Below are positions 1 through 16,252 of a DNA stretch of 16,784 nucleotides, piece after piece (within the stretch, counting starts at the first letter, position 1; each line of letters opens with the position of its first letter). Source of the DNA: a virus. The translations under genes were made by a program, and so were the position numbers. The stretch lies in UHGV virus genome UHGV-0338128, one strand, 5' to 3'. The notes below the pieces were generated by a model. The model was not told the DNA's origin. It did not search any database and saw only the letters and a program-made list of their open reading frames with translations.

Positions 1-138
1 GGACTGTCAACGATCTACCGCTATCACCCTGTTGGGACTGTCATAACGCAACCTGAAATGTAATTCTTTTTCAAATAATGAAACGCCGCGTGGATGCCAT
101 TTATCGCACAAGATAGAGTGCATTTATCGCGCGGCGCA

Positions 139-528
139 TCAGGTGAGAATGTTGCGATCCAGTGCTTCCGGCACGGCATAGCCGCCGTCTTCATCGGTGC
201 CCACCTGCAATGCCTTGCGCTCCAGATCGCGCAGACCATCTTCACGGCCTTTACGCAGGAAGCCCACAAACGCTTCTTTATGCTCGGTGGCCAGTTTATT
301 TTGCGCACCACCTGCCGGACGTTTCAGCTCAAGCAGCTCTTTTTCAAGATCGCTTTTGAGGTTTTCCAGCTCGCTGAGTTTCCCGTTCAGGGTTTCCACC
401 TGCCCGGCAAGTTTGCCTTTTTCCTGCTCAATCGCATCCACGCGCTTGTCGTTCTTTGCTTTGAAGTCGTCAAACTTCTGCTGCAGCTCCTGCGCGACCT
501 GTTCGACATCTTTAATATCAACCGCCAT
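139..528 (-). pseudogene. HK97-family major capsid protein, N-terminal fragment (delta/scaffold-like coiled coil plus first residues of the mature domain); ORF stops after 129 aa
   Basis: ATG at 528 with AGGAG SD 7 nt upstream; stop of the upstream protease gene lies just before it. The translation is charged and coiled-coil-like (EQ/KL-rich) and ends ...TDEDGGYAVPEALDRNILT, which looks like the start of a mature capsid domain. Full-length HK97-type capsid proteins are about 350-400 aa; here an in-frame TGA occurs at 139-141 and bases 1-138 do not continue the capsid frame. Confidence 0.5.
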
Positions 529-542
529 CGTATTTCTCCTGA

Positions 543-1193
543 TTAGAAGTTCAGATTTTTCAGTGCATTCAGTGCAGAGCCCACATCCTCAGCGTCGCGC
601 AGGGACAGTGCGCCATAGCCCCCGGCCATGAATGCTTTGGCCTGGGTACGGGAGAGTCCGACATCACGCAGGACTCTTTCGATTTTTTTCTGTTCGGGGA
701 TTTCCCCGCGGGCCAGTGCGTTCTTGACGTCGCTGATCCGCGCCTCGTCGTTAGACGGGAACGTCACCAGGCTGACTTCCCAGAGGTCGATTTCTTTCAG
801 CAGAAAGGCTTCTTTGCTCCGGTCGTATTCCCAGTCTTTCAGGACGTACCCAATAGAAAGGCCGGTTAACGAACCGGCCTTCATGTGTGCATGTGCGCGT
901 TTTGCGAGGGGATCATCATCAATAAGCAACCGTCCCCTGACGTAAAGCCCGACATCGTCTTCCTTCATTTCGGTGTAAACACCGATGGGTTCATCCATGC
1001 GGTGCTGCCAGAGCAGCGCAGGTAACGCTTTTCTGTCACTCCACGCCCGCAGGGAAGCAGCAAATGCCCCGGACATCACCACATCATCGTGGCTGTCCTT
1101 TACACCAAAGACGGAGCCATACCCTTCAAACTCACCGGAGTCACTGACAGATTTCAGACTCAGCGGTACATCAAGACGTTGTTTCGTCTGCAT
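543..1193 (-). CDS. HK97-family prohead maturation protease
   Basis: Translation (...EGYGSVFGVKDSHDDVV...LVTFPSNDEARI...) resembles HK97 gp4-type head proteases and sits between portal and capsid as in HK97. Start chosen at the in-frame ATG at 1193, preceded by AAGGA; the six-frame ORF extends to an ATG at 1229, which would overlap the portal gene by 59 nt. Confidence 0.8.
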   Translation of the reverse strand: MQTKQRLDVPLSLKSVSDSGEFEGYGSVFGVKDSHDDVVMSGAFAASLRAWSDRKALPALLWQHRMDEPIGVYTEMKEDDVGLYVRGRLLIDDDPLAKRAHAHMKAGSLTGLSIGYVLKDWEYDRSKEAFLLKEIDLWEVSLVTFPSNDEARISDVKNALARGEIPEQKKIERVLRDVGLSRTQAKAFMAGGYGALSLRDAEDVGSALNALKNLNF

Positions 1194-2412
1194 TGGCGTT
1201 ATCCTTCTGCTTACCGGCTTTACTGCCATCGGAGGGTTTCGTGGTCATGTTCATCGGTGTGAGATAGACATCCCCACCGGGACGGGGATTCATATCTTCC
1301 AGGTCGCGGCAGTCATTGGGAGAGTAAATTCCCCAGTTAATCCCGGTGGCGTAGGCTTCAAAACGGGACTTCATATCCCCGCGCAGTAACGCCCCGGCGT
1401 TAAATTTGGCGTAATAAACGCCCTGCTTACTTTTTCGAACCAGTCCGGTGTTGATCCGCTGCTCGATGCGGGTCAGATACGGCACCAGTGAATAGTTGAT
1501 AAATCCCAGCCCCAGCTCTTCAATATTGTTGAAGGTGGCGCGATCGGTGTTCTGCACCATGTGCAACGGCACCCGGAACAGACGACAGATTTCTTCAAGC
1601 TGAAACTTGCGGGTTTCCAGGAACTGGCTGTCCTCGGCGTTCAGCGCCATCGACTTCCAGTCCAGCCCCATCTCAAGGATCATCGGGCGGTGAGCATTAC
1701 CAAGCCCGGTGTGACGCTCCTCAAAATCTTTCTTCAGGCGCTCGTAAGCCTGATCTGACAGCGTCTGCTCTGTACGCAACACACCCGACGTCACCGCACC
1801 ATTGCTGAACAGTCTGGCCCCGTGCTCTTCGGTCGCAGCTGCCAGCGATATTGCCTCGCGGGCATAGGCGATGGGATTCAGCCCCACCAGACCGTCCAGC
1901 GTCAGCGTGCGCACATGCCAGATATCTTCCTGGCTCAGCACATCCGTGGAGCCGTCCGAGAATGTGACCTGATAGACCGGCTCCCAGCTACTGTTAAGCT
2001 TCGGTACCACACAGCCAGGATCGACGGGCAGCAGTTCAGCCACTTCGCCAAATGCTTTCACTTTGTAGGCGTAAAAGTTTCCCCGCAGGCACAGACAGGT
2101 GACCACCAGCTCCCAGAACTCCTGCGGCGTCATATAGCCATTGGGATGCGTGGAGATCAGCTTATGCAGACGTTCGCCGGTGGCCCTCTGTTTCAGGCTG
2201 CCGTTCAGGTGATACAGATTGCAGGGCAACATCCCGACCGACTCTGCCAGCACCCTGACGCAGGAAAAAACCGCCGTCAGTCGCATGGCCCGCTGGCTGC
2301 TGATCTGCTTTCCGGTATAGGTGTCGTATGACAGCCCGATAGCCTCCGCCAGCTCTGCTGGCGTGGTCACCGGCGCGTCACTTTTTCGTTGAAATAATCC
2401 CGAAAAGAACAC
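1171..2412 (-). CDS. phage portal protein, HK97 family
   Basis: 413-aa ORF with portal-like N-terminal region (RLTAVFSCVRVLAESVGMLP) and length, between terminase and protease. GTG start at 2412 preceded by GGAGG; its start overlaps the stop of the upstream small ORF. Confidence 0.85.
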   Translation of the reverse strand: MFFSGLFQRKSDAPVTTPAELAEAIGLSYDTYTGKQISSQRAMRLTAVFSCVRVLAESVGMLPCNLYHLNGSLKQRATGERLHKLISTHPNGYMTPQEFWELVVTCLCLRGNFYAYKVKAFGEVAELLPVDPGCVVPKLNSSWEPVYQVTFSDGSTDVLSQEDIWHVRTLTLDGLVGLNPIAYAREAISLAAATEEHGARLFSNGAVTSGVLRTEQTLSDQAYERLKKDFEERHTGLGNAHRPMILEMGLDWKSMALNAEDSQFLETRKFQLEEICRLFRVPLHMVQNTDRATFNNIEELGLGFINYSLVPYLTRIEQRINTGLVRKSKQGVYYAKFNAGALLRGDMKSRFEAYATGINWGIYSPNDCRDLEDMNPRPGGDVYLTPMNMTTKPSDGSKAGKQKDNANADETTS

Positions 2413-2594
2413 TATTTACCTCCGCCGACAGACAGCTGTGTACGATCGAGATATCGCGCCACCAGCCACGACCAGAACAGGCACAGCGCCCCGGCAACAA
2501 CAAAACCCGCCGGGGGATAAATCAGCCAGGCACCATATGCCAGCAAAAGCGCACCCAGCACGCCCACCAGAGGCGCGAGAATCAGCATGATCAT
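2412..2594 (-). CDS. small hydrophobic protein (two predicted transmembrane helices), unknown function
   Basis: 60-aa [52 protein letters not shown]..., with GAGG 6 nt before the ATG. It exactly fills the gap between the terL stop (2606) and the portal start (2412). Confidence 0.5.
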
Positions 2595-2605
2595 AATTAC
2601 CTCAG

Positions 2606-4339
2606 TTAAAGCGAGCGGATCCCGTAGGACTCAATGTGGTCAGACAGCGTGTCTTCTTTCTCGTACAACATGGCTCTGCCAACCGCCATAATCAGCGCAA
2701 CTGCACCATCGATTTTGTTTTCCGCCTGCTCTTTGACGGGTTTCACCACATCATCGTTACCCGGAATGGTTTTGCCGACCACGTTGCCGATACACCAGGT
2801 CATGATGGGATTGCCATCATGATGAAAGCGCCCCGATTCAATTGCCGCTTCCAGCTCTTTCATCGGGTCGGACATGTTGGTGTAGTTCTGAATGATAGTG
2901 ATGGGGTTCAGGTCTTCATCAGCAAGGTCATGTGACAACCCGGTCGCCCCGAAGGGGTCGATGGGTGACTCACTGACCGGGCTGATTTTGTTCGCCGCTT
3001 TGGCCTCCTCGAGGATGTAGCGATAATCCACCTCCGCACCATCGGTAACGGTCAGAACGCCCATTTCCACCCATTTCTGAAAGCGTTCGGCTGTCCGTCG
3101 ATCTTCATTTTTCTCGACGCTGTACACCGTGTCATACGGTACCCAGAAACGCGGGGCCACACTGTAGTAATGCGTTTTACCGTCAATCTCGCGGGTATAA
3201 AGTCGCGCCATGCTGTTCATATCCAGCTTACGCGCCAGGTCAAAGGCCAGAATGCACGGCTGCCCCTCGAACTGCTCAAGGGTCAGTGATTTATCCTCGC
3301 AGCTCTGCCAGCTCACCAGGTTGAAATACGCCGAACGCGCCGACACCCAGATATTGAGGTGTTTTGTTTTAAAGACGTTTGCCAGACGGGCGTTATTTTT
3401 CGCACGCTGCTGCTGACTTAACAAAAATTCGCGATAAACCGACACGCCAATATTTGGATTGGCTTTTTCCAGCACCTGCGGGTCGGTCCAGTCGTCACCT
3501 TCATCAACGGTATAGATGATCCCGAACAGTTCATCGTTAGGCACCGAGCCATTGAGCATCTCGATGACTTCCCGCCGCTTGTCGTAGCACGGCCCCTCAA
3601 TGTTGTACCCGGCGGTGGTGATAGCCCACATCAGTGGCTGACGTCGCGCCCCCATCCCGGTAAGCATCGTGGTGTAAAGCGCATCGGTGGCGTGCTCGTG
3701 ATATTCATCCACCACCGCACAGTGGGGTGATGAACCATCACCGGGGTTACCGATCAGCGGTTCAAACCGCGCGCCATCCTCCGGACGGTTCATGTTTGAG
3801 GCGTTAACCTCAATCCCGAACGCTTCCGTCAGCATGGGTGTGCGTTTACACATCAGTCGAGCCGGGCGAAAGACTTCCCACGCCTGTTTCTCTGTCGTGG
3901 CACCGGAATACACTTCCGCGCCAAACTCGTTATCACAGGCAAAACAATACAGGGCAACACCGGCAGAGATTGCCGATTTGCCGTTCTTACGGGGGATTTC
4001 GGTATACACCTCCCGGAAGCGGCGCAGCCGGGAGCCTTTATTGACCCAGCCAAACGCGCAGCAGATCACAAAGAGCTGCCACGGCTCCAGCGTGATGGGC
4101 ATCCTCTTAAATGCCCACTCACCCTTGGTGTGCGGCAACAGCTGAATAAATTTGGCGGCCCGTTCAGCCAGGTCCTTGTCGAAGCGGTAACGAAACGACT
4201 TACTTTTTTCCGCCATCAGGTCATCAAGATGGCGCTGGCAGGCCTGAATCACAAACTGGCAGGCCACAATCTTTCCGCGCACGACATCCCGGGCATACTG
4301 ATTGGCAGCATTTACGTTGGGGTAAGATTTCCGGCTCAT
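2606..4339 (-). CDS. terminase large subunit
   Basis: 577-aa ORF with an ATPase-like N-terminal region ([14 protein letters not shown]..., Walker-A-like) and nuclease-like C-terminal half. Its ATG overlaps the terS stop in an ATGA junction. Confidence 0.9.
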
Positions 4340-4830
4340 GATTCGATGATTTTCAGAAACGGGTTAGTGGCTTTCTTCTGCCCCGCCAGGCCAATCAGAC
4401 GCTGACGGCTGCTGGGGTCGAGTCCGAGCATTGCCCCCGTGCTGCTCATCTCGGACTCCTGTTCTTTTTTGGCTGTCAGCTCCGGATTTTTGACCCTGCC
4501 GCCCATTGCGCCGGTGATGGTATTGCCCTGTATGGCAATATTTTTCACAGCACGTCGCCAGAACTCATAGGCCACGCACCACCGCTCAAGCACCGCGAGG
4601 TCAGTCACGCACAGCAGGCCCTGACCGCAGAGTTCTTTGGTTGTCAGTTGCCACATGATCGTGGCGAGAGGGAGATCTTCTTCAGCGAACCACTCCGGTG
4701 GCTCAACACCTTTGATGGGCGTAAAAACAGGTTCATCTTTGTTCAGGGCTCGCTTGCCGGGGTTTCCGGCCAGCGCCTTGCGCGCCGTTGGCTTGGGGCG
4801 ACGCCCGGAACGCCCCGCCGTTCCAGCCAT
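4336..4830 (-). CDS. terminase small subunit (P27-like family)
   Basis: N-terminus [28 protein letters not shown] is typical of P27-type small terminases. Start taken at the ATG at 4830 (AGGAG 8 nt upstream); the ORF track start at 4839 is a GTG three codons earlier. Confidence 0.8.
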
Positions 4831-4880
4831 ATGCGGCACTCCTGGTTAAATTTCATTTTTCGCGGGTATAAAAAAACGAT

Positions 4881-4929
4881 GGGGCGGGCAGTCCGGAAGA
4901 CGTCAGGTCACAGGGATTTGACCCGCCCC
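4881..4929. other. candidate cos / terminase recognition region: inverted repeat GGGGCGGG (4881-4888) ... CCCGCCCC (4922-4929)
   Basis: An 8-bp GC-rich inverted repeat with a 33-bp spacer lies in the 116-bp gap between HNH endonuclease and terS. In HK97-like phages the cos site is in this position. Confidence 0.3.
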
Positions 4930-4955
4930 TCCCCTCAGAAAGTTGAGAATTATTA

Positions 4956-5306
4956 TCACTTCAGTCGTTCACGGGCCGTCTTCGCCTTATGACACGGCCA
5001 GCACAGGCTCTGCAGATTGCAGTCTGCATCAGTGCCGCCATGCGCTTTAGGGATGATGTGGTCAACGGTTTTCGCCTCACGCACCACACCGACATGCAGG
5101 CACAACTGACACAGGCCTTTGTCACGCTTCAGCACGCGCGCGCGGATAACATCCCACTTCGAACCGTAGCCGCGCTGGTGACGGGATTGTCCTGGCTTGT
5201 ATTGTTTCCAGCCTTCGCTTTTGTGGCTTTCACAATAGCCTGACGGATCAGTGGTGGTTTGGCGGCAGCCGCGAACGCGGCAGGCTTTTGGGGTTCGTGG
5301 GGGCAT
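4956..5306 (-). CDS. HNH endonuclease (HK97 gp74-like, packaging-associated)
   Basis: 116-aa ORF with Cys pairs (CRVRGC, CESH, CQLC) and the HNH core DHIIPKAHGGTDADCNLQSLCWPCH, located immediately upstream of terS. Confidence 0.85.
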   Translation of the reverse strand: MPPRTPKACRVRGCRQTTTDPSGYCESHKSEGWKQYKPGQSRHQRGYGSKWDVIRARVLKRDKGLCQLCLHVGVVREAKTVDHIIPKAHGGTDADCNLQSLCWPCHKAKTARERLK

Positions 5307-5408
5307 TTAAAGTGGGATCTAACTCTAATAATTTAAAAAATTTAATTGGGTCTTGATATTAATCACATAGACTCAATGCTCTTTAGTTCTTACATAGGTG
5401 GTTGTATT

Positions 5409-5849
5409 ATGAGTATCCCCAGTTTAGATGTTCATAAAGTTGTTAAGTGCGCAGAGCATAAAAAGGCTTTAGATGCAATATCTCTCAAACTTAAGAATAA
5501 CATTATTGACTCAAGCTCTGAATACGATTTTCTTGGCGACACAATAATTTTCAATAAAGATAAAAAAAATAGGTTAACCCTCAAACTTTCAACATATGAA
5601 CTAGAACTTATTTTCAAAGAAACACTGCTAGTCATTGATGAAGCTCCTGTATTGAAGTTTGCTGCCATTGACCCAACCGATGAAAATAACAACGAGCTGA
5701 TTGATTTATTTTTATCCAAAGGTGGATTTATTTATATTAGAGAATACAAATCCGAGCCACATTATGAGTATGGCGACACTTCTCTATTTTTACATATACT
5801 TGACGCTACTCTTAAAGAGCTTAAATCTGCAAACAAAATATCCTATTAA
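5409..5849 (+). CDS. hypothetical protein, AT-rich moron, 146 aa
   Basis: ATG at 5409 with AGGTGG 7 nt upstream; the ORF track extends it to a TTG at 5346. Strongly AT-rich compared with flanking phage genes. Oriented opposite to the late operon. No family recognised. Confidence 0.55.
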   Translation: MSIPSLDVHKVVKCAEHKKALDAISLKLKNNIIDSSSEYDFLGDTIIFNKDKKNRLTLKLSTYELELIFKETLLVIDEAPVLKFAAIDPTDENNNELIDLFLSKGGFIYIREYKSEPHYEYGDTSLFLHILDATLKELKSANKISY

Positions 5850-5955
5850 ATAAATTTTTGCTAACATAGCCCCGCGCCATGACAAGATTTTCTGTTCTAG
5901 ATGCAAGGGCTATGTGTGAATATCTATAAACAAAAAACCCATCCGGTGATTTTTG

Positions 5956-6180
5956 TCATTTTTTAGCCATCTCAATTGCGGCATCAAAAAGTCGTTCAAG
6001 AATAAAATCAGGGTACTGTAATTTTTCTTGCTCGATATGAAGCTCATAAATTTTCCCTTCCCACTCCCATTTAAAATTAAATCCAGAAGCAGAAGGTGCG
6101 AAATGTGTTTTAGCTTTAGGGTTAGCGTAACCAGCAACAGTCAACACATCAAACTTAAAATCTTGAGGTTTAATACGCAT
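5956..6180 (-). CDS. hypothetical small protein, AT-rich moron, about 74 aa
   Basis: Start taken at the ATG at 6180 (MRIKPQDFKF...) with AAGGA upstream; the ORF track starts at 6207 (MMNLAKDMIM...). Convergent with the 146-aa gene. No family recognised. Confidence 0.5.
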   Translation of the reverse strand: MRIKPQDFKFDVLTVAGYANPKAKTHFAPSASGFNFKWEWEGKIYELHIEQEKLQYPDFILERLFDAAIEMAKK

Positions 6181-6212
6181 AATCATATCCTTTGCCAAGT
6201 TCATCATTATTC

Positions 6213-6247
6213 TTCGCGATTATAAAACAATGAATAAAATCATTAAA
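6213..6247 (-). promoter_or_regulatory. candidate sigma70 promoter for the 74-aa moron gene (-10 TATAAT, -35 TTTAAT, 17-bp spacer)
   Basis: On the minus strand a perfect TATAAT (plus 6219-6224) lies 17 bp after TTTAAT (plus 6242-6247), about 35 nt upstream of the ATG at 6180. Confidence 0.3.
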
Positions 6248-6277
6248 GCATAGACGTTAAATATCCTCAAAATGTGA

Positions 6278-6715
6278 TTAGTTGGGACATTGCGTCCTGA
6301 TATACTCCTGCAAGTAATTGACCTGTGAGGTTATCTTGTCGATTCCACTTCGGAGACGGTAATAATGGAGTTCAGCATCTGCTGTAAGTCTAGGGCTTTC
6401 TCCATCGCCCATGCCGCTGGCTCCGGTCGTTGACTTTGTACAGGTGGCGGCGACTTGCAGGCGCTTATGCCCAGCAGAAACATCAGCACGAAGACTTTCG
6501 ATAGTCGCATTAGCATCAGCAAGCTCCTTTGTATATCTGGCATCGAGTTCAGCTACATTACGTTGACGCTTCTGCATATCAGCGATGATGGATGTGGCTT
6601 TATCGCGCTGTACTTTGTAGACGATGGCGTCATCACGGTAATTATCAACAGCCCATGACAAGCAGACGATGATGCAGATAACCAGAGCGGATATAATCAC
6701 CGTTACTCTGCTCAT
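6278..6715 (-). CDS. Rz: i-spanin Rz
   Basis: N-terminus [23 protein letters not shown] (signal-anchor) followed by coiled coil; closely resembles lambda Rz as I recall it. Start overlaps the endolysin stop. Confidence 0.9.
6331..6516 (-). CDS. Rz1: o-spanin Rz1 (lipoprotein embedded in Rz in a different frame)
   Basis: Embedded ORF with lipobox LLGISAC followed by a proline-rich segment ([13 protein letters not shown]). Start taken at the ATG at 6516 (AAGGAG 8 nt upstream); the ORF track extends to 6543. Confidence 0.75.
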
Positions 6716-7188
6716 ACCTGAATCTCTTTGACCGTTCCGCCGGCTTCTTTGAATTTTGCAATCAGGCTGTCAGCCTTATGCTCAAACTGACCATAACCAG
6801 CTCCCGGCAGTGAAGCCCAGATATTGCTGCAACGGTCGATAGCCTGACGAATATCACCGCGATCAATCATCGGTAAAGCACCACGCTCTTTAATCTGCTG
6901 CAGTGCAACAGCATCCTGGCTTTTTGGAGAGAAGTCTTTCAGTCCAAGCTGTTTACGGTATGCATCCCACCAGCGGGAAAGAAGCTGGTAGCGCCCGGCA
7001 GCCGTTGATTTGAGTTTTGGGTTTAGCGTGACAAGTCTGCGAGGGTGATCGGAGTAATCAGTGAATATTTCTCCGCCCACAATGACGTCATAACCATGAT
7101 TACGTGTCGGTTGTAGCCCATTATCCGTTCCTTCTGACCAGGCCACCATATCGAGGAAAGCTTTACGCTGAGGATTAAGATTTTGCAT
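6712..7188 (-). CDS. R: endolysin, lambda R-type lytic transglycosylase
   Basis: 158 aa; [24 protein letters not shown]...[86 protein letters not shown] is near-identical to lambda R as I recall it. Confidence 0.95.
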
Positions 7189-7579
7189 TTTTCACCCCTG
7201 TCAGTCGTTCCCAGAAGTACGTCAGTGCAACCGAACCCATCGCACCACTAATCCCCGCAGTTGCGAGAATCATGTAAATACTGAATCCACTTTCGATACT
7301 GATTAGGCCACCAATAACACCGGTGAATCCTGATACAACTATCTGAGCGAGGGCATTTATCCAGCTCCACGTTGCTTTACTCTGCTTCACATCAATCAGG
7401 TAACGGACAAGCCCCCCCCAACCTGCGATGATCAGCAAAACAAGCCAGAACGCTCCGGCAAGATTCTCTTTTTCGTGCATATGAATAGCCGCAGTTTCGC
7501 CTCCGACAGAAAATCGGAGCGTGAAATGATATGTTGATTTATTATTAATTCGAAAATTACATTCTAATTCATCAGGCAT
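7175..7579 (-). CDS. holin (three predicted TM segments; not lambda S or phage 21 S type)
   Basis: Three hydrophobic segments (GAFWLVLLIIAGWGGLV, WINALAQIVVSGFTGVIGGLI, FSIYMILATAGISGAMGSVAL) directly upstream of and overlapping the endolysin gene. Start uncertain: ATG at 7579 has no SD; an in-frame ATG at 7480 (MHEKEN...) gives about 101 aa. Confidence 0.7.
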   Translation of the reverse strand: MPDELECNFRINNKSTYHFTLRFSVGGETAAIHMHEKENLAGAFWLVLLIIAGWGGLVRYLIDVKQSKATWSWINALAQIVVSGFTGVIGGLISIESGFSIYMILATAGISGAMGSVALTYFWERLTGVKNAKS

Positions 7580-7597
7580 TGATGATTTTATAATAAT

Positions 7598-7620
7598 AAA
7601 GGCCGTTCGTTACGGCCTTT
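7598..7620 (-). terminator. intrinsic terminator-like hairpin after the acidic moron gene
   Basis: GGCCGT (7601-7606) / ACGGCC (7612-7617) stem with a 5-nt loop, flanked by A/T runs on both sides; read on the minus strand it is followed by UUUAUUAUUAU. Confidence 0.45.
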
Positions 7621-7631
7621 ATTATTGATAT

Positions 7632-7967
7632 TTATTTTACATCCCAAGGTAGTTCCTCAAGAGAGAAGACTAATTCATTATCAATAATTTCGTATTCTGC
7701 ATAACCTTCAACCTCTCCTGAGAAGTTATTGTCAACGCATCCTTCATAATAGCTATATGGTGCTATAAAGTGAAACCCATATTCATCTATCTCTGTGATT
7801 TCAAAATTGTAGTAATCGTAAGAATATCGAATATCATCATCAGAAATAGAACTAAGTACATAGTTATTAAATTTATCGGAATGCTTAACGATAAGTTCTG
7901 ACAACGCGTCAAGATTCTCTGGAGAGATATTTCCTAACGGTAATCTGTACTCAACGGCATTAATCAT
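7632..7967 (-). CDS. hypothetical highly acidic protein (111 aa), late-operon moron
   Basis: ATG at 7967 with strong AAAGGAGG SD. By my hand count about 24 Asp/Glu against about 5 Lys/Arg, and rich in Tyr/Phe. AT-rich. Bracketed by two terminator-like hairpins, downstream of Q and upstream of holin. Confidence 0.6.
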   Translation of the reverse strand: MINAVEYRLPLGNISPENLDALSELIVKHSDKFNNYVLSSISDDDIRYSYDYYNFEITEIDEYGFHFIAPYSYYEGCVDNNFSGEVEGYAEYEIIDNELVFSLEELPWDVK

Positions 7968-8019
7968 ACAACCTCCTTTTTAACTGATATGAGGTTATAT
8001 AATGTGTTTCAGTACAAGT

Positions 8020-8045
8020 AAATAAAAACCCGCTCAACAGCGGGT
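8020..8045 (-). terminator. candidate tR' intrinsic terminator
   Basis: On the minus strand: ACCCGCU-GUUG-AGCGGGU hairpin (plus 8028-8045) followed by UUUUUAUUU, about 110 nt downstream of the Q stop. Confidence 0.6.
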
Positions 8046-8086
8046 TCGTGAAAATTATCAACGGCAGACATACAAAGCCCATCGTT

Positions 8087-8121
8087 GAGAAAATCTTATC
8101 CATATTTTTTGAAAAATGCAA
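8087..8121 (-). promoter_or_regulatory. candidate late promoter PR' (-35 TTGCAT, -10 TAAGAT, 17-bp spacer) with presumed Q-utilisation region
   Basis: On the minus strand TTGCAT (plus 8116-8121) and TAAGAT (plus 8093-8098) lie between the Q stop (8153) and the tR'-like terminator. Position fits lambdoid PR'. Not experimentally verifiable from sequence. Confidence 0.35.
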
Positions 8122-8152
8122 GCTTCATGTCACTATCTTCGGCGAAAATCAC

Positions 8153-8905
8153 TTATCTCGTCACCTTTCTCAATTGTGTTTCAGCATATGCTTCTTCCTG
8201 CCAGCACTTTGTTACTAGTTTATCAATTACGTCTGCATATCCTTTGTACCACTGATAATCAGTCAGGTCTGGAACCAGCTTCTGGACATGACGTCGTGCC
8301 AGTGTAGTCGGTAAACGGCTAAACCGGTTTCCATTGCAACGCCCACAAGTCTTATAAACAGGCGTGCCATGAAGCCGGGTTCTTTTTTCATCCAGGACAA
8401 TACCTTTACCCTTACACCCTCTGCACGCCGTGCTGACTTCTCCCTTGCCATGACAATGCTGACACAGTTCCTTCACCCACTCTTCTTTGATAACGGATTC
8501 CCCGCTTCTGGAATGTTTCACCACTTCGCGCAATACATTATGAAATCCAGTACCAGTACAATGCTCACAGCGAGCCTTACTTGCCGCAGACCTGGAATAA
8601 TCAGCAAAGGCAAAATTCACAAGGTAAGGGATGATCTGTAACCGGGTTTCTTCACTCAATTTGTTCAATGTCGGGTTATCCAGTGCCATCGCGTAATTGA
8701 GCAGGCCTTCAATCGCAAACTGAGGATCCTGAACACCAACTTTTGCCAAGAATAAGGCAAACCCAAGCGGTGCTTTCGACTGCACCATCCCCTGCGCAGC
8801 CATTACATCCGTAATTGTTAAACCACCCGAGCCTGTCGCCGATGCGTCATCGCTCAATTTTGGAGATTTTGGGGAGTAATATTTCGGTAAGGCTTCAAGG
8901 TTCAT
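8153..8905 (-). CDS. Q: late-gene antiterminator Q (cysteine-rich, zinc-finger type)
   Basis: Start at the ATG at 8905 (MNLEALPKYY...) with GGAGAA upstream; the ORF track extends 14 codons further. Contains CEHCTGTG, CQHCHGKG, CRGCKGKG and CGRCNGN motifs. Sits immediately upstream of the candidate PR'/tR' and lysis genes; I recall similar Q proteins in Stx-type lambdoid phages. Confidence 0.8.
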   Translation of the reverse strand: MNLEALPKYYSPKSPKLSDDASATGSGGLTITDVMAAQGMVQSKAPLGFALFLAKVGVQDPQFAIEGLLNYAMALDNPTLNKLSEETRLQIIPYLVNFAFADYSRSAASKARCEHCTGTGFHNVLREVVKHSRSGESVIKEEWVKELCQHCHGKGEVSTACRGCKGKGIVLDEKRTRLHGTPVYKTCGRCNGNRFSRLPTTLARRHVQKLVPDLTDYQWYKGYADVIDKLVTKCWQEEAYAETQLRKVTR

Positions 8906-8918
8906 GCTCGTTCTCCAC

Positions 8919-9914
8919 TTACACCAGTACGCCAATTGCCAGCGCACGATCGATAAAACGAAATATCAGCTCCAGCTGGGAGCCATACATCTCTTCAAAT
9001 GCCACGGTATCCGCATGCAGCTCGTCGTGATGCTTTCTGCACAAAGGCAACACAAAAAGGTCATGCGCTTTTGTACCCATTCCACCCTGTCCGTGGCCTA
9101 TCAGGTGGTGGGGATCATCAGCGGGCTTTCCACAACATGCACACGACTGTGTCTTAACCCAGCGCGTGTACTTTTCATTAACCCAGCGGCGACATTTTGG
9201 GCGTAACATAAAAGACTCCGGCGACTCCGGATCCACTTTCAGCGCCAGCACCTTTTTCGCTTTATCCTGGATGATGCTGGTGGCAGGAACCGAAGGAACA
9301 AGGTCACTTTCCCGGGTGACAGACGGCACAACAGGCTTTGGTAATCTCAGTGCCTTACGGGCTGCACTTTCCGGTAAGGCATCCGCCAGGTCATTACGAA
9401 TCAGCCACCAGCACAGTTCCGGCATTGTCACAACGTGACTGTCATCAAAACCGAGATCCCGACGCACAACAGACAACACCCAGCGGGCACAGTTATCCGT
9501 TGCCATTGATTCCAGCCGTTCCGTGAACTGATCGCGCAGCTGGTTATCGCAGTGCCAGCACAGACGGATTGCGCCCGGCGCGTGTCGCATTGTGGTCATG
9601 TTCTCGCTGTGCCAGTCGGAATGAGGCCACTGGCAGCCTTTTTCACGAAGTAACCAGCTTTCAAGACATTCCACGCCACCAGCACGACGGATCACTGCCT
9701 CATTGCGGAACACGGCCCGAACAGCAGGATCATCCGCCAGCGGTTGTGATGCCGCGGGAACGGCACCACTGGCGAAAGATGAATAACGTTCCGGCTCAGG
9801 CTCCAGCAGTACACGCCCCTGCATAAACAGGGGCATCAGTTCTGAACCTGGTCTGAACAATACGATCCCCATACGCGGGGCTATTTCAGGGGTCAGTAGT
9901 GCTCTCACGGTCAC
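8919..9914 (-). CDS. DUF968-like phage protein (YdfU-like) with C-terminal HNH/zinc-binding-like motif
   Basis: 331-aa ORF; C-terminal CACCGKPADDPHHLIGHGQGG...CRKHHDELH motif. Position just upstream of Q matches ydfU-quuQ in the E. coli Qin prophage as I recall it. Start codon at 9914 is GTG; the first in-frame ATG is at 9872. Confidence 0.6.
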   Translation of the reverse strand: MTVRALLTPEIAPRMGIVLFRPGSELMPLFMQGRVLLEPEPERYSSFASGAVPAASQPLADDPAVRAVFRNEAVIRRAGGVECLESWLLREKGCQWPHSDWHSENMTTMRHAPGAIRLCWHCDNQLRDQFTERLESMATDNCARWVLSVVRRDLGFDDSHVVTMPELCWWLIRNDLADALPESAARKALRLPKPVVPSVTRESDLVPSVPATSIIQDKAKKVLALKVDPESPESFMLRPKCRRWVNEKYTRWVKTQSCACCGKPADDPHHLIGHGQGGMGTKAHDLFVLPLCRKHHDELHADTVAFEEMYGSQLELIFRFIDRALAIGVLV

Positions 9915-11134: not shown

Positions 11135-11457
11135 ACTTTCAGGCCCCTCTCATGTAACCAGTGAGTTGCACGCAGCCTGGCGTTTTCCTCACCGGCAAGC
11201 AGTGCGCGGATAATCCCGGCTGCCTCGCTGTCGTCGTCCTTCACTGTGGTATGAAGCGTGATACCCCGGGCCACGCCACGCTTTATCGTGATGACGCCTT
11301 TTTTCTCCATTGCGCGAAGATGCTCCACCGCTGCATTCACCGAACGGTATCCCAGCATGGCTGCCACCTCCTGATTGGTTGGCGGGAAACCACGTTCTTT
11401 CTGATAAGAAATCAGCATATCCAGCACCTGCTGCTGGCATTGAGTTAACGTCGTCAT
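11131..11457 (-). CDS. LexA N-terminal DNA-binding-domain homolog lacking the S24 peptidase domain (108 aa)
   Basis: From the ATG at 11457: MTTLTQCQQQVLDMLISYQKERGFPPTNQEVAAMLGYRSVNAAVEHLRAMEKKGVITIKRGVARGITL aligns without gaps to E. coli LexA residues 1-69 as I recall them ([68 protein letters not shown]). Only about 39 further residues follow and no Ser/Lys peptidase domain. Start overlaps the upstream stop (TAATG); the ORF track start at 11490 is a GTG. Confidence 0.7.
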   Translation of the reverse strand: MTTLTQCQQQVLDMLISYQKERGFPPTNQEVAAMLGYRSVNAAVEHLRAMEKKGVITIKRGVARGITLHTTVKDDDSEAAGIIRALLAGEENARLRATHWLHERGLKV

Positions 11458-11945
11458 TAACCCCCCACGTAATTCCCTGACAGATACCACTCATCACCCG
11501 ATACAGCGCGCTTGCTGCTTTTCCGTAAACACTGCTCACGACGCGCCAGAAAATTGTTTCGTTCTGGCTGGGAGTGGCTTTCACGGAATGCCGCCATCCA
11601 CACCGTTGCAGCACGACGGTATAAGCCCCTGGACTCTAGTTCTTCAGCCTGGCGGGTCAGGCACAAAATCACACGGGGATCGTTAGTGCCGACATAGAAA
11701 TTGCGCACAGGTCTGGTTTCACGAACTGGTTGTGGTTCCGGCTCCTGTGCTCTCTCAGTCAGGCGCGGGAAATGTCTGCGTGTATCCCCTTCACAACGGT
11801 GAGCCACACGCCCACTCTGACGTAACTTGCTTGCTGACTGCAGAACGCGCTGCCGTGAGTAACCAGCAAAAGCATCCGCAATGTCTCCGGAAGTACACCC
11901 CGGATGGGCTTCAATGAATTTCTGAACTTCATTCAAAAGACTCAT
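11457..11945 (-). CDS. putative PerC/Pch-like transcriptional regulator (162 aa)
   Basis: C-terminal LESRGLYRRAATVWMAAFRESHSQPERNNFLARREQCL resembles the GLWRRAA..W core I recall for PerC-family proteins. The N-terminal 60 aa looks like a winged-helix. Family assignment is from memory and tentative. Confidence 0.45.
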   Translation of the reverse strand: MSLLNEVQKFIEAHPGCTSGDIADAFAGYSRQRVLQSASKLRQSGRVAHRCEGDTRRHFPRLTERAQEPEPQPVRETRPVRNFYVGTNDPRVILCLTRQAEELESRGLYRRAATVWMAAFRESHSQPERNNFLARREQCLRKSSKRAVSGDEWYLSGNYVGG

Positions 11946-11947
11946 GA

Positions 11948-12754
11948 TTACCCCCTGAATCCTGCCGGGATCTGGCTGTAGTCCACGTTGTCGTAACTGG
12001 CTTTGAAGTACGGGTCCTCGCGTCTGGCTGCAGATACCGCAGGAACTTCCCAGGATTCTTCGAAATGACGATCCGGACCAAAGAACGTGACAGCCTGTTT
12101 CACAAATTGTGTGCCGCTGTTACCCATCGCAGATACCCAGCCCGCGTAGCGTTTCACACCTTCCAGCATGGTTTCGGGTTTTACCCCCTCATTCAAACGG
12201 GCTTTCCAGGCTTTGAAGGCTGCAGATTTTGAATTGCCACCAGCACGTTTGGGATATGCCAGCCATGCCTGCTCAAACTCCGGAGAGTATTCCGGTCGGT
12301 TTGAACGAACTCGCACAGACTCATCAGCAGATGCACCAACAGCTATTGGTTCATTGACTGGTTCAAAAGAGTGACTGGTTCTGGGTGAATCTCCTGCACT
12401 ACCCCCTGGTGCAACTCCTGCACTACCTGGTGAATTTGCTGCACCAGATAGTGAATTATTTGCACTACCCCCTAGTGAATCTCCTGCACCATCAAGATGA
12501 AGGAGATAGATATTACTTGAGTTACCTTTTTCACCTTTCCGGGTGACTTTTTTTACCAGCCCGGAATCACAAAGGGCCGCAATATGATTCATCACAGAAC
12601 GTTTGCTAATCTCGCACTGGTCAGCAATATGCTGGTAGCTGGGCCAGCACTCACCCTGATCGCTGGCATTATCAGCCAGCTTGATCAGAACCAGTTTTCG
12701 CAATGGATTACCCACTCGAATTTTCATCGCTTTAACCATCAGCTCCATACTCAT
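11948..12754 (-). CDS. replication initiator (lambda O-like replisome organiser, N-terminal HTH)
   Basis: Start at the ATG at 12754, overlapping the upstream stop (ATGA). N-terminal ...LRKLVLIKLADNASDQGECWPSYQHIADQCEISKRSVMNHIAALCDSGLV is typical of phage replication-initiator HTH domains. A Gly/Ser/Ala-rich linker is encoded by a direct-repeat array, then a C-terminal domain follows. The ORF track extends to 12793. Confidence 0.75.
   Translation of the reverse strand: MSMELMVKAMKIRVGNPLRKLVLIKLADNASDQGECWPSYQHIADQCEISKRSVMNHIAALCDSGLVKKVTRKGEKGNSSNIYLLHLDGAGDSLGGSANNSLSGAANSPGSAGVAPGGSAGDSPRTSHSFEPVNEPIAVGASADESVRVRSNRPEYSPEFEQAWLAYPKRAGGNSKSAAFKAWKARLNEGVKPETMLEGVKRYAGWVSAMGNSGTQFVKQAVTFFGPDRHFEESWEVPAVSAARREDPYFKASYDNVDYSQIPAGFRG
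12385..12493. repeat. iteron-like direct repeats (five units of about 21-24 bp, GTGAATCTCCTGCACTACCCCCT-like) inside the replication gene: candidate ori
   Basis: Units begin near 12385, 12409, 12430, 12451 and 12475; each contains a GTG(A/C)A...TGCAC partial dyad. They map to the interdomain linker of the initiator, as lambda ori iterons do within O, and are flanked by a moderately AT-rich stretch (12494-12530). Confidence 0.55.
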
Positions 12755-12975
12755 GCTGCACCTCCGAGATGCTTCATGTTTTTTCCGGAGCAAAAGGCTA
12801 TAAGCGGCATACTGACGCGGTAATTACGGCCCAGCGGTTCACAAACCACCTTCTGACATTCACGGTCAACCAGGCTAACACGTAGAACATGCCCTGCAGG
12901 CGTGGTGTACCACTGACCCGGACGAGGACAACGGAAAGTCTGATTGGTAAAACGTTTGAAAATATTCCGGATCAT
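12751..12975 (-). CDS. hypothetical small protein (74 aa)
   Basis: ATGA overlaps at both ends (with the Rha stop and the replication-gene start) imply translational coupling within the early operon. Several Cys/His (RCPRPG...RECQKVVCEP). No family recognised. Confidence 0.5.
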   Translation of the reverse strand: MIRNIFKRFTNQTFRCPRPGQWYTTPAGHVLRVSLVDRECQKVVCEPLGRNYRVSMPLIAFCSGKNMKHLGGAA

Positions 12976-14123
12976 TTGCGCCCCCTTACCTCTGAAGGGT
13001 TCAGCGACAAATTTATGAGGCAGGCCAGCGCCGAAGCATCATTAATATAATCATATAAGCTAACAGCCAGCGGAGATTCGGCTTTTGCCAACATAGGATA
13101 AAGCTGCTGCAGCCAGACCTGATGAATTGATGAAATGTAGGAACAGAGAACGCTGGCGTTATGTGCAACGTCGCTCGGTACAGCGGGCTTTGAAAGCTGT
13201 TTCTCCATCTGGTTAAAGGCATTGATATATGCCTCTTTGAACTGGGCAGCACGTTTACCCGTGAAACCCATAGCAAGAAACGCAAAACCGTCGCGTGTGA
13301 TTTGGTAGCAATGAAGTTTGCGACCTGTGCAATCAGTGTAATCACTCACCGAAAAATTGCGGGCAGTGAATGATGCTGAGCATTCAAGCGTGCGGATCTT
13401 TTTCAGTACATCGTCATGACGTTTGGAGAAGAAGTTGGCAACAGCCAGGGATGAAGTAACAACCTGACCATCAACGATGGCAATTTCAGGTTGAGTGAGG
13501 GTTGGGATCGTAGCCATGATGGCAGCCTCTTTGGTGATTTTTAATAACTCACCACCAAGGCTTTCCACGACCTTATTGGTGGTGAGACGTACAGGGGTGG
13601 AAATACCGGTCACCAAAGAACCCGGCCCAACCGAAGTTGGCCCTGCACGCCCCACCATAATTTGGGCGTAATGCTGCTCATGACACAAAAAAACCGCAAG
13701 AGCGCGGTTGTGCGCTTTGGTGAATTCCGGGTTTCCACGCCCGGCCCCCGTTTTATAAGGTGCCTGAACAGTGTAACGTCCCGGAATGGCAGAATCAATG
13801 TGTTGGTGGTCCGTCACACTCAACAAAATCACGCCTGAATTTCCACAAAGGACTAAAGCACTCATGCGGGTAGTCTTTGCGAAGATAGATAACGCGCTGT
13901 GTTTCTGGTTCCCAACGAATAACATGAACATAAAGCCCTCTTCCGTCACGAAACCAGCGGTTAAGTTCCTGCACAACTCGCCCCCCACAGTCAGGTAAAG
14001 TTCTCTGTGGTTACTTACAGCCTGGTGATTTGGTAATCTGCATTCATGCCGTAACAACAGGTGTTCAGAGACGCTGACCACCAGCTGTTGCGACAAACGG
14101 TTATTTGCCGTTAAACTGTTCAT
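12972..14123 (-). CDS. Rha-family phage regulatory protein with about 200-aa N-terminal extension of unknown function
   Basis: C-terminal 181 aa (from MATIPTLTQPEIAIVDGQVVTSSLAVANFFSKRHDDVLKKIRTL...ITRDGFAFLAMGFTGKRAAQFKEAYINAFNQME) match the Rha domain pattern. The frame is open for 202 further codons upstream to an ATG at 14123 that overlaps the CII-like stop (ATGA) and has GGAGA upstream. An internal ATG at 13517 with AAAGAGG SD sits exactly at the Rha domain start. Confidence 0.65.
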   Translation of the reverse strand: MNSLTANNRLSQQLVVSVSEHLLLRHECRLPNHQAVSNHRELYLTVGGELCRNLTAGFVTEEGFMFMLFVGNQKHSALSIFAKTTRMSALVLCGNSGVILLSVTDHQHIDSAIPGRYTVQAPYKTGAGRGNPEFTKAHNRALAVFLCHEQHYAQIMVGRAGPTSVGPGSLVTGISTPVRLTTNKVVESLGGELLKITKEAAIMATIPTLTQPEIAIVDGQVVTSSLAVANFFSKRHDDVLKKIRTLECSASFTARNFSVSDYTDCTGRKLHCYQITRDGFAFLAMGFTGKRAAQFKEAYINAFNQMEKQLSKPAVPSDVAHNASVLCSYISSIHQVWLQQLYPMLAKAESPLAVSLYDYINDASALACLINLSLNPSEVRGRK

Positions 14124-14671
14124 GCGTTAGTTTCTCCACAGACACAAAACGCCACGACGCCCGGAGCTGCACACTCGCGGGCGTCACTCTTTTCTGGAGC
14201 GCAGAAAATTTTGTAGACCAGTGCCGCATGCTCCTGGAGCTTCGAAATCGACAGATACAACTCATCATTAATTGCTGTCTGCTCGTGTGGCTCCACTACC
14301 CCATCTTCGATTGCCGAACGAATCTGCTTTGAGTAACTCCCGATTTGTTCGATGACTTCCAGCAGGCGCTGGTTTATATCGGCGTTCTCTACTTCCTCAA
14401 TTTCAGGAAGCGATACAAACACCCCACCAGCAGACTGTGCGACAGCATCCGCAATGTAGTGAGTGCCAGCAGCGCGCTGTAAAATCATTGCCCATCCCAG
14501 CGGGAAAATCTGATCGCCATCTGCACGAAGGCGGTTGAATAAAGCGTTCTCTGTTACATCCAGCCACTCAGCAGCTTCAGCGTAACCCCCCGGCAACGCC
14601 GCGATAGTTTTTCTGACAGCTTTCACGTACCACTCAGGCTGTTTTTCCACTTTCCAGTGATGCTTACCCAC
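14120..14671 (-). CDS. putative CII-type early regulatory protein (phage 186 CII / CP76-like), 183 aa
   Basis: Occupies the cII position directly after cro. GTG start at 14671 with AGGAG 7 nt upstream. The central segment (ALFNRLRADGDQIFPLGWAMILQRAAGTHYIADAVAQ) loosely resembles phage 186 CII as I recall it. Tentative. Confidence 0.4.
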   Translation of the reverse strand: MGKHHWKVEKQPEWYVKAVRKTIAALPGGYAEAAEWLDVTENALFNRLRADGDQIFPLGWAMILQRAAGTHYIADAVAQSAGGVFVSLPEIEEVENADINQRLLEVIEQIGSYSKQIRSAIEDGVVEPHEQTAINDELYLSISKLQEHAALVYKIFCAPEKSDARECAAPGVVAFCVCGETNA

Positions 14672-14924
14672 GGCTTATCTCCTGTTCCTGTGGTTTAAAC
14701 CCATTCTGGTTTTGGCTAGATTGAAAACGTGCCGGATAAAGAATCTGCATTTCGCTGATTTCACCCTTAAAAAAATTGGCCAGACGTTCTGCAAGCTCGA
14801 TAGATGGAATTTGTTCCAGTCTTTCAATACGACTCAGCGTCGCTGGATTGACCTGAACGCCAGCAGCAACATGCTGCAAAGTAAATCCGTGCGCTTTACG
14901 CACATTCCGTAATGGTGATTGCAT
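14664..14924 (-). CDS. cro: Cro-like HTH (XRE-family) repressor
   Basis: 86-aa ORF divergent from the CI-like gene, with GGAGG SD and an HTH (GFTLQHVAAGVQVNPATLSRIERLEQIPSIELAERLANFF). Confidence 0.8.
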   Translation of the reverse strand: MQSPLRNVRKAHGFTLQHVAAGVQVNPATLSRIERLEQIPSIELAERLANFFKGEISEMQILYPARFQSSQNQNGFKPQEQEISRG

Positions 14925-15021
14925 ATAACCTCCACATATTGCGTGATGAGCATATTATTTCACGCAAATATTTTGCGCAAGTTGATTTGCTTAACGCGCA
15001 ATAAAGAAATGTAATAAACGC
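14925..15021. promoter_or_regulatory. OR-like operator/promoter region between cro and cI (candidate PR and PRM)
   Basis: Repeated TTGC-N7-GCAA-like half-site pairs (TTGCGTGA...TCACGCAA 14939-14967, TTGCGCAA 14973-14980, TTGCTTAACGCGCAA 14987-15001). On the minus strand -35 TTGCGC (plus 14975-14980) and -10 TAATAT (plus 14952-14957) with 17-bp spacing form a candidate PR toward cro. Confidence 0.55.
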
Positions 15022-15714
15022 ATGAACATAGGAAATCGAGTCAGACAACTTCGCCAAGCGAAGAACATGAAAATCGCCGATCTCGCTGAAGCAATAGGAG
15101 TGGATGCGGCAAATATCTCGCGCCTGGAAACAGGTAAGCAGAAACAATTCACTGAACAAGCCCTGAGTAATATTGCCAGGAGCTTAGGTGTTGATATTGC
15201 TGATCTCTTTACCTCAGACTTCAAAAGTAATACTGTATGTAAAAACAGTATTAGTGAGGATGTTGCGCAGGTGAAGGATGTATTCCGTATTGAAATGCTG
15301 GATATCAGTGCCAGTGCGGGAAATGGCCTTATCCAGGGCGGTGATGTCATTGATGTGATTCATGCCATTGAATACAGAACTGATAATGCTGTATCGATGT
15401 TTGGCGGACGGCCAGCAAATCACATTAAAGTAATCAACGTTCGTGGGGACAGTATGTGTCCAACCATTGAGCCAGGAGATCTCATCTTCGTTGATGTCAG
15501 TATCAATCAGTTTGATGGAGATGGTATCTATGTATTTGGTTTTGATGATAAAATTTATGTCAAACGACTGCAAATGATACCTGACAAACTACTGGTGATT
15601 TCTGATAACCAGATTTACCGTGAATGGGGAATTACCAGCGAAAATGAACACCGGTTTATGGTCTTTGGAAAGGTCTTAATCAGCCAGTCACAAACCCTTA
15701 AGCGACACAATTAA
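15022..15714 (+). CDS. cI: CI-like prophage repressor (N-terminal XRE HTH, C-terminal S24 LexA-like autopeptidase)
   Basis: HTH (MKIADLAEAIGVDAANISRLETGKQ), an Ala-Gly candidate cleavage site (SASAGNG), and a peptidase signature (VRGDSMCPTIEPGDLIFVD ... VKRL). Confidence 0.9.
   Translation: MNIGNRVRQLRQAKNMKIADLAEAIGVDAANISRLETGKQKQFTEQALSNIARSLGVDIADLFTSDFKSNTVCKNSISEDVAQVKDVFRIEMLDISASAGNGLIQGGDVIDVIHAIEYRTDNAVSMFGGRPANHIKVINVRGDSMCPTIEPGDLIFVDVSINQFDGDGIYVFGFDDKIYVKRLQMIPDKLLVISDNQIYREWGITSENEHRFMVFGKVLISQSQTLKRHN
15231..15250. promoter_or_regulatory. near-consensus LexA (SOS) box TACTGTATGTAAAAACAGTA inside the cI coding sequence
   Basis: Perfect TACTG-N10-CAGTA with an AT-rich spacer; falls in the linker between the HTH and peptidase domains of the CI-like protein (codons for SNTVCKNSI). 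Confidence 0.45.
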
Positions 15715-15734
15715 CCCTTACCTCCTCATCAATT

Positions 15735-15756
15735 AGCCACCCGAAGGTGGCTTTTC
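15735..15756 (+). terminator. intrinsic terminator downstream of cI
   Basis: AGCCACC-CGAA-GGTGGCT hairpin (7-bp stem, tetraloop) followed by TTTT, about 20 nt after the cI stop. Confidence 0.6.
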
Positions 15757-15769
15757 ATTACCCATCAAA

Positions 15770-15822
15770 TTGCATATCTCGCAACAAAAACACTTGCATA
15801 ATGCGCAACTTCATTTTATCTT
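15770..15822 (+). promoter_or_regulatory. OL-like operator pair with candidate PL
   Basis: TTGCATATCTCGCAA (15770-15784) and TTGCATAATGCGCAA (15794-15808) share the TTGC-N7-GCAA form of the OR sites. TTGCAT (15794-15799) followed 17 bp later by TATCTT could serve as -35/-10 of a rightward early promoter. Confidence 0.4.
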
Positions 15823-16252
15823 TCTTTCCAGACCAACAAACAAGGTACTAACAAAATTTGGTTGTAACACGGCGTATGGCACATGCGTCGTTAGCGGTCT
15901 GGGGACGTTAAAGGGGACAATCCACTCCTTGCTCGGGCAAACAAACCAGGTAGCCGGAATGTGCAAGTCAATGATGATGCTGATAAGACGCCTAACCAGC
16001 GTGGCGGTTCGGTTTGACACCTGGGAAGAGACCAGGGTGCAACGATGAGGGCATTTATGGAACCGCGACAAAGTGTGGTGCCGTAACTGGCTAAGTGCTC
16101 TCAGCGTTGTGGTGAATGCGCAGGCTGATGCGCGAAAGACATTGCAGCTATTGCGGAAAAGAGCTGTTCGGCGGGGCAATTAAACACCCGTGAGAGTCTG
16201 AAATAACCGCAAGCCGGAGATCAGCACCGGTCACCACAACAGCCACTGCTTT

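Follow-up and report, generated by a model that had tools for sequence, protein, structure and literature searches.

A BcepMu-like transposable prophage as the probable cause of a split capsid gene in an e14-like prophage of Escherichia coli

Why does the major capsid gene of this prophage stop after 129 codons, and what is the DNA that follows it? The window, by which we mean the whole 16,784-nucleotide stretch analyzed here (UHGV virus genome UHGV-0338128), begins close to this point. In its left part, every long open reading frame (ORF) lies on the minus strand, in the order terminase, YmfR-like, portal, protease, and capsid stub, the YmfR-like ORF (60 aa, minus strand) being located between the large terminase and portal genes. 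The preliminary description of the sequence regarded the end of the capsid frame as a deletion junction. Our analysis leads to another reading, which we hold with high confidence: the boundary between bases 141 and 142 is the right-end junction of a BcepMu-like prophage of ∼37.5 kb that transposed into the capsid gene of a resident e14-like prophage. The features on which the argument is built are collected in Table 1.

Table 1. Features of the window, and invertase sites of the inserted element, of the UTI89 prophage, and of contig L004
Feature	Position	Strand	Remarks
3' end of Gin/Pin-type serine DNA invertase gene	1..63	+	last 20 codons (GLSTIYRYHPVGTVITQPEM) and TAA at 61-63
Noncoding right terminal region of BcepMu-like prophage	64..141	.	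78 bp, ends ...GCGGCGCATCA-3'
Inner box GCGATAAATGG (read from tip)	97..107	-	35-45 nt from tip; presumed transposase-binding site 2; holds first repeat copy
Outer box GCGATAAATGC (read from tip)	120..130	-	12-22 nt from tip; presumed transposase-binding site 1; holds second repeat copy
Terminal TCA-3' of element (CA tip 140-141)	139..141	-	minus strand is the TGA that stops the capsid ORF
Capsid stub ORF	139..528	-	129 codons, TGA stop at 139-141
GGTGAG, right copy of 6-bp target-site duplication	142..147	.	capsid codons 128-129, CTC ACC on minus strand
Capsid codons 1-129, HK97-type, resident e14-like prophage	142..528	-	amino acid and DNA identity to intact genes
Prohead serine protease, resident prophage	543..1229	-	intact; PF04586 Peptidase_S78, E = 1.2e-31; adjoins capsid gene upstream
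Portal gene	1171-2412	-	ORF order
Large terminase gene	2606-4339	-	ORF order
HTH_36/DnaD_N protein (DnaD-like replication gene)	11948-12793	-	mosaic block
Ash/Rha fusion	12972-14123	-	mosaic block
CII-like gene	14120-14671	-	mosaic block
Cro-like gene	14664-14924	-	mosaic block
S24/HTH repressor	15022-15714	+	mosaic block
Invertase site, inserted element	L003		TTCCCCCAAACC-AA-CGTTTATCTCTC
Invertase site, UTI89 tail-fiber gene			TTCTCCCAAACC-AA-GGTTTTCGAGAG
Invertase site, hybrid	L004		TTCTCCCAAACC-AA-CGTTTATCTCTC

The truncated ORF had been recognized as the beginning of an HK97-type capsid protein with its delta region, and this identification holds, since the product is identical at 129/129 positions to residues 1-129 of WP_000257492.1, the 401-aa capsid protein of an intact prophage of E. 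coli ATCC 11775. The Phage_capsid domain (PF05065) covers residues 115-398 of the intact protein, and the stub keeps the delta (scaffolding) domain plus the first 15 residues of Phage_capsid; submitted alone, the 129-aa stub matched no Pfam family, PF05065 included. Its assignment is thus based on the N-terminal identity to a bona fide capsid protein and on its position directly after the S78 protease gene, the homolog of which in relatives is annotated by RefSeq as a protein of 216 aa. The stub ORF is a fragment of an HK97-type capsid family member, not a functional member, and the resident prophage is unable to make capsid protein from the split gene.

The resident prophage itself is readily placed: the window matches the ∼40-kb prophage that lies between ssrA and an integrase gene in UTI89 at 98.7% identity over 11.3 kb. 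This UTI89 prophage shares with e14 of K-12 homologs of ymfK, ymfT, ymfL, ymfR, and ymfQ, and the window has the gene order of the UTI89 and ATCC 11775 prophages (HNH, small and large terminase, portal, S78 protease, capsid). It differs from them by its split capsid gene and by its immunity/replication region (about 12.0-16.2 kb), which is another mosaic block. All genes of this block (11457-16252) appear intact.

Comparison of the bases near the break with intact relatives, a check proposed in the preliminary description, places the breakpoint precisely. DNA identity to intact capsid genes, for example those of ATCC 11775 and UTI89, is 100% from base 142 rightward and ends there: where the intact gene reads ...TTTCAGCAG GGTGAG AATGTT..., the window reads ...GCGCATCA GGTGAG AATGTT.... 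The gene is therefore truly cut off after 129 codons. When window segments 1-1300 and 1-400 were compared by megablast with 5426 complete E. coli genomes, >1000 genomes matched at up to 100% identity, the matches starting at base 142 or, in a few cases, at base 137 with mismatches, and none of the 5426 genomes gave a match spanning the junction. Since capsid homology starts at base 142, foreign sequence fills positions 1-141, and the stop codon of the stub consists of the outermost three bases of this foreign DNA (TGA) read on the capsid strand. The exact 129-aa product, used as a query for the right junction, was found in 60 index blocks from Logan, ENA, and NCBI assemblies; as these assemblies are independent, the junction is real and widespread rather than an assembly artifact. 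The exact junction patterns had zero matches in IMG/VR, among GTDB genome representatives, and in JGI metagenomes. We also observed a contig (L005) in which the resident-prophage DNA is only 97.7% identical to window positions 142-5306 and yet ends at the same nucleotide and encodes the same 129-aa product. The same insertion thus sits in diverged prophage backgrounds, either because an old insertion was followed by recombination or because the site was hit more than once.

The origin of the foreign DNA becomes apparent from its distribution. At ≥95% identity, bases 1-141 occur in 599 records representing 597 of the 5426 complete E. coli genomes, where they are flanked by unrelated genes, including yehR, gspL, ascB, gcd, rfaH, cirA, lom, flgA, and a small terminase gene. 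The match ends exactly at base 141 in 50 of 60 rows from a listing spread evenly down the ranking, and in the others it extends 1 to 4 bases further, as chance matches with the flank would. Recurrence at unrelated sites with a common end at base 141 identifies this sequence as the end of a mobile element. Bases 1-63 are identical to the 3' end of the gene for WP_000904922.1, a 190-aa "recombinase family protein" (L001, L002, and L015) with the domains PF00239 Resolvase (E = 8e-51) and PF02796 HTH_7 (E = 1e-12). The size of ∼190 aa, the Resolvase domain with a C-terminal HTH_7, and the association with an invertible segment bearing 26-bp sites are those of the Gin family, only the last 20 codons of the gene being in the window. 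Invertase sites of the form TTCYCCCAAACC-AA-CGTTTAT are found beside gin and in the fiber segments, and the invertase gene closes a contractile-tail gene block that holds the invertible tail-fiber segment. A serine-recombinase transposon or an IS607-like element was considered for positions 1-141 and was rejected, given that the neighboring genes are those of a Mu-type phage with a DDE transposase and that the recombinase is the invertase of the fiber segment.

A complete copy of the element splits gcd in strain EBJ003. It measures 37,511 bp, has the tips 5'-TGATTAGAC...GCGCATCA-3' (5'-TGAT...ATCA-3'), and is bordered by the 6-bp direct repeat CGTGAC. In JJ1886 (ST131), a copy located between aroA and ycaL is flanked by GAAGAA, so that, with GGTGAG in the capsid gene, all three insertions (3/3) have a 6-bp target duplication. 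The termini are of the TG...CA type, the right tip in the window being ...CATCA at base 141 and the left tips being TGATTAGAC or TGATCAGAC. Strain 510016 was dropped as a complete reference copy for the left end, because IS1 truncates its left part and IS100 interrupts it. Many copies of the element are damaged or linked to rearrangements, as in 510016 (IS1 and IS100; L012 11834-18987), JJ1886 (ISEc23; L014 27563-29979), and IAI39, where the right end borders on lom and terminase genes of a lambdoid prophage that are themselves truncated (L002 8140-8840).

The early genes of the element, which encode Mor, GemA/gp16, Gam, an AAA+ ExeA-like ATPase, a 589-aa rve transposase, a DUF3102 protein, and a Ner-like protein, are all read in one direction. 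The opposite direction comprises the repressor, cargo genes, holin, transglycosylase, and Mu-type head genes (DUF3486, DUF935 portal, and Mu F- and G-like), followed by sheath, tube, tape measure, baseplate, the fiber segment, and the invertase. An IS66-associated inversion in JJ1886 was envisaged as the cause of the divergent early region and was discarded, since the clean gcd insertion of EBJ003 has the identical layout, which is hence the normal organization. Cargo varies in two intervals: JJ1886 has a DNA adenine methylase between the repressor and lysis genes, where L016 has an NA37-family nucleoid-associated protein, and an additional pair of genes (210 aa and 53 aa), absent from EBJ003, separates Mor from the left tip in L016 (L015 14005-16635; L014 30091-32275; L016 1-46 and 8980-9777). 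In the fiber region, invertase sites number more than two and as many as three alternative fiber-tip cassettes are present (L015 41793 and 42307; L014 2716 and 4317), with layouts that vary among EBJ003, JJ1886, 510016, and Z0117EC0117. Because the cassette layouts vary between strains, this suggests a multicassette, shufflon-like switch rather than a two-state G segment.

Many unrelated insertion sites combined with a short target-site duplication are what characterizes a BcepMu-like element, and the transposition proteins agree with this. In related loci, the transposase matches PF00665 rve (E = 1e-8) and the neighboring ATPase matches AAA_22 (E = 3.6e-20). The transposase shares 98.6% identity with its counterpart in Escherichia phage PhiKM (PQ738613.1), the closest isolate on record to the element, 68.5% with the one in Burkholderia phage BcepMu, and about 57% with the one in Pseudomonas phage B3, while none of its 69 tblastn matches (E ≤ 1e-5) is to Mu, D108, or SfMu. 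BcepMu-related elements have been described as having TG...CA termini and a transposase with an rve core related to that of Tn552 (KS10 paper, PMC2628397), and prophages of ST131 have already been placed in the genus Bcepmuvirus (bioRxiv 10.1101/2022.05.07.487787). With BcepMu, a member of this genus, the E. coli element shares a related rve transposase, TG...CA termini, the AAA+ MuB-like partner, Gam, GemA, and Mor, divergent transcription of the early (Ner to Mor) and late operons, a Mu-type head with a P2-like contractile tail, and insertion at many unrelated sites. It differs by the invertible tail-fiber segment and the Gin-type invertase at its right end, both of which BcepMu is reported to lack (PMC2628397). 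The element therefore belongs to a type already described, that of the BcepMu-like transposable phages, to which a Gin-type inversion system has been added here.

The likeness to coliphage Mu is more general. Both are temperate, transpose into near-random sites, and inactivate target genes; both have a Gin-type invertase and an invertible fiber segment near the right end, at least two transposase sites per end (here presumed), and TG...CA tips. Mu duplicates 5 bp of its target, whereas the element duplicates 6 bp (3/3 insertions), and the early region of the element has the opposite orientation, with no com/mom beyond gin. A canonical Mu or SfMu (strict Muvirus) was accordingly rejected on account of the 6-bp duplication, the absence of a Mu match for the transposase, and the inverted early region. 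Tn552 of Staphylococcus aureus has two directly repeated transposase sites of ∼23 bp at each end and makes duplications of 6 to 7 bp. The 23-nt spacing of the boxes described below and the 6-bp duplication fit these features; Tn552 differs in being a small resistance transposon rather than a phage.

A short direct repeat in the bases beyond the capsid frame had been noted. The repeat, CATTTATCGC, is real and lies at 98-107 and 121-130, one base away from where it had been placed, with a spacing of 23 nt; it belongs to the terminal region of the element. A chance 10-mer repeat is also found elsewhere in the same 600 bases, and a decamer repeat alone is unremarkable. What makes CATTTATCGC significant is that the pair of boxes containing it recurs at equal distances from both tips of the element. 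From the outside inward, the right end reads TGATGCGCCGC-GCGATAAATGC-ACTCTATCTTGT-GCGATAAATGG, the left end of EBJ003 reads TGATTAGACTT-GAGATAAATGA-CAGGGAATAAGT-GAGATATTTAT, and that of L016 reads TGATCAGACAT-GAGATAAATGA-AGGGGGATCCGT-GAGATAAATAA. GAGATAAATGA is present in the left ends of three copies, as far from the tip as the outer box, and left ends carry GAGATATTTAT or GAGATAAATAA at 35-45, so that both ends of the element possess a pair of related 11-bp boxes, one at positions 12-22 and the other at 35-45. From their arrangement, we infer that these boxes are likely transposase-binding sites.

If the element entered the capsid gene by simple transposition, one would expect a reciprocal left junction of the form ...CAGCAGGGTGAG|TGAT..., an ORF for a capsid remnant with Met137 as its first residue, and, farther on, the remaining part of the resident prophage. 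The expected C-terminal remnant of 265 aa is present in exact form in a public protein collection (P0121, 35 contigs), and contigs that encode it are present in 44 index blocks; only the form starting at ATG-137 was found in the protein collection, which had no remnants starting at the GTG codons 135 and 136. In L016, the left junction is ...TCTGATCA|CTCACCCTGCTGAAAGATG (...GATCA|CTCACC), and the sequence runs ...CATTTATCTCATGTCTGATCA|CTCACC CTG CTG AAA GAT GAA GTG GTG ATG..., in which CTCACC is the reverse complement of window positions 142-147. The intact capsid gene carries CTCACC once at the insertion point; in the public assemblies, the left end of the element abuts capsid codons 128 onward, with the 6-bp duplication GGTGAG. 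Upstream of the junction, L016 carries the repressor, transposase, ATPase, Gam, GemA, and Mor genes of the element, and downstream it carries the resident connector, head-closure, terminator, sheath, tube, tape-measure, and baseplate genes. A reciprocal junction with a 6-bp duplication and resident genes beyond it argues for simple transposition. The tail genes, which the preliminary description had suggested looking for elsewhere in the genome, thus lie past the insert in the assemblies that have the left junction, together with the missing 272 capsid codons. None of the samples listed contained both junctions, and no single contig on record extends across the whole nested structure.

Based on these observations, we propose that the DDE (rve) transposase and its AAA+ MuB-like partner would bind the two 11-bp boxes, 23 bp apart, at each end of the element and cleave at the terminal CA-3', after which both ends would be joined to the target with a 6-bp stagger in capsid codons 128-129. 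Repair would then duplicate GGTGAG, and the capsid frame would enter the tip of the element, where TGA would end translation after Thr129. The predicted product is a 129-aa delta-domain stub, presumably incapable of building a capsid. We infer that the genome from which the window derives still has the full insert and the left junction, the window itself showing 141 nt of the element.

Three other explanations of the break have to be weighed against this transposition. The capsid gene does end abruptly with unrelated DNA beyond, as a plain deletion by illegitimate recombination in a decaying prophage would leave it; however, this DNA is the exact tip of a mobile element that ends at the same base at many other sites, the reciprocal junction with its 6-bp duplication exists, and the genes thought to be missing are found across the insert. 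We therefore consider a plain deletion at 141/142 very improbable, and the description of the break as a deletion junction is not sustained. A capsid protein that is naturally short, or that is resumed by a programmed frameshift or a separate downstream gene, would agree with the length of the ORF and had been named as the case that would speak against a truncation. Translation of bases 1-138 in all three frames gave no capsid continuation, which confirms the earlier statement that the leftover 138 bases are not capsid, and relatives with 100% identical DNA encode a single 401-aa protein, so that the likelihood of this explanation is negligible.

There is also scarcely any likelihood that the junction is a chimera, in which the assembler would have joined the repeated element end to an unrelated contig. 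This idea draws on the fact that exactly 141 nt separate the start of the window from the junction, which suggests a contig end at a graph branch, and on the record name of L017, which carries "k141"; 141 is the final k-mer size of MEGAHIT. Yet the junction is found in 60 index blocks from Logan, ENA, and NCBI, which use different pipelines, and the left junction that corresponds to it shows the duplication to be expected. The window probably represents a contig of a metagenome assembly that broke off at a branch in the graph, which would mean that the right end of the element has more than one flank in the sample; the presence of several copies or several strains, or active transposition, would produce such multiple flanks. 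The names of related ENA contigs begin with k141_..., and L005, L006, and L011 also end at the junction.

Insertion at 141/142 was followed in some assemblies by a further loss, as illustrated by L004 (Logan SRR29061811_77, in 3 samples). This contig is 100% identical to the window over 6775 bp and continues with 727 nt of the element (its right end and the invertase gene), then with the resident invertible fiber segment, a decayed invertase consisting of a 42-codon remnant, and a DUF262/GmrSD gene. Beyond the switch, it is 100% identical to UTI89 2902962-2907941 (L004 7270-7400 and 7340-12326, compared with L020, UTI89, 3963-8942). The switch, 700-727 nt inside the inserted element and not at 141/142, occurs within a hybrid 26-bp invertase site (TTCTCCCAAACCAACGTTTATCTCTC) that has one half-site from each parent around the central AA (Table 1). 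Half-site exchange around a central AA is what we take to be the signature of a serine-invertase crossover. The parental sites are directly oriented and the product is colinear with UTI89; together with the half-site exchange, this indicates that L004 results from a site-specific deletion of ∼50 kb, which removed the resident tail and head-completion genes, the C-terminal part of the capsid gene, and all of the invader but gin and the right end. The shared sequence at the join amounts to only 15 nt, which would hardly allow a de Bruijn assembler working with k-mers of about 31 to produce it by accident.

Whether the genome of the window went the same way is a distinct question. After the insertion, its Gin-type invertase could have joined the gin-proximal site to the directly oriented site in the resident tail-fiber gene with loss of ∼50 kb, a course for which the 100% identity of L004 to the window speaks. 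In contrast, the same right junction elsewhere continues into the own fiber genes of the element (L003) or halts at the invertase site (L008 and L010), the occurrence of the left junction in 44 blocks and of the right junction in 60 means that many carriers are probably undeleted, and the window holds no sequence that tells the undeleted from the deleted state. Invertases of the Gin family strongly favor inversion over deletion. All in all, we view such a deletion in this genome as possible but rather unlikely. The preliminary description also proposed a prophage remnant that keeps regulatory, lysis, and packaging genes; this picture fits the L004-type genomes, which would have reached it by another route and through a junction other than 141/142.

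In L004-type genomes, and perhaps, though we doubt it, in that of the window, the resident invertible fiber cassette would now be located beside a functional, newly acquired invertase gene that replaces its own decayed one. In the intact relatives of the resident prophage, the invertible tail-fiber segment is kept, and their own invertase gene is a 123-bp pseudogene (in UTI89, L020 6820-6942). Inversion in intact resident relatives would need an invertase supplied in trans, for instance by an incoming BcepMu-like phage. If true, the L004-type event would be a natural invertase-catalyzed deletion between two prophages, accompanied by an "invertase replacement" in a cryptic prophage.

The inactivation of a prophage gene by a transposable phage is already known biology and is nothing new in kind; the sole mildly unusual item is the invertase-mediated deletion between prophages in the related contigs, a modest but concrete case of two prophages reshaping each other. 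Phages of this BcepMu-like family are frequent in E. coli, being present in about 11% of the complete genomes, and they disrupt host as well as prophage genes. At the locus studied here, what looks like decay by deletion is very probably a second, transposable prophage nested in the first, the morphogenesis genes being shifted by ∼37.5 kb, at least in undeleted carriers. This is relevant to calls of prophage completeness and to the reading of contig ends in short-read and metagenome assemblies.
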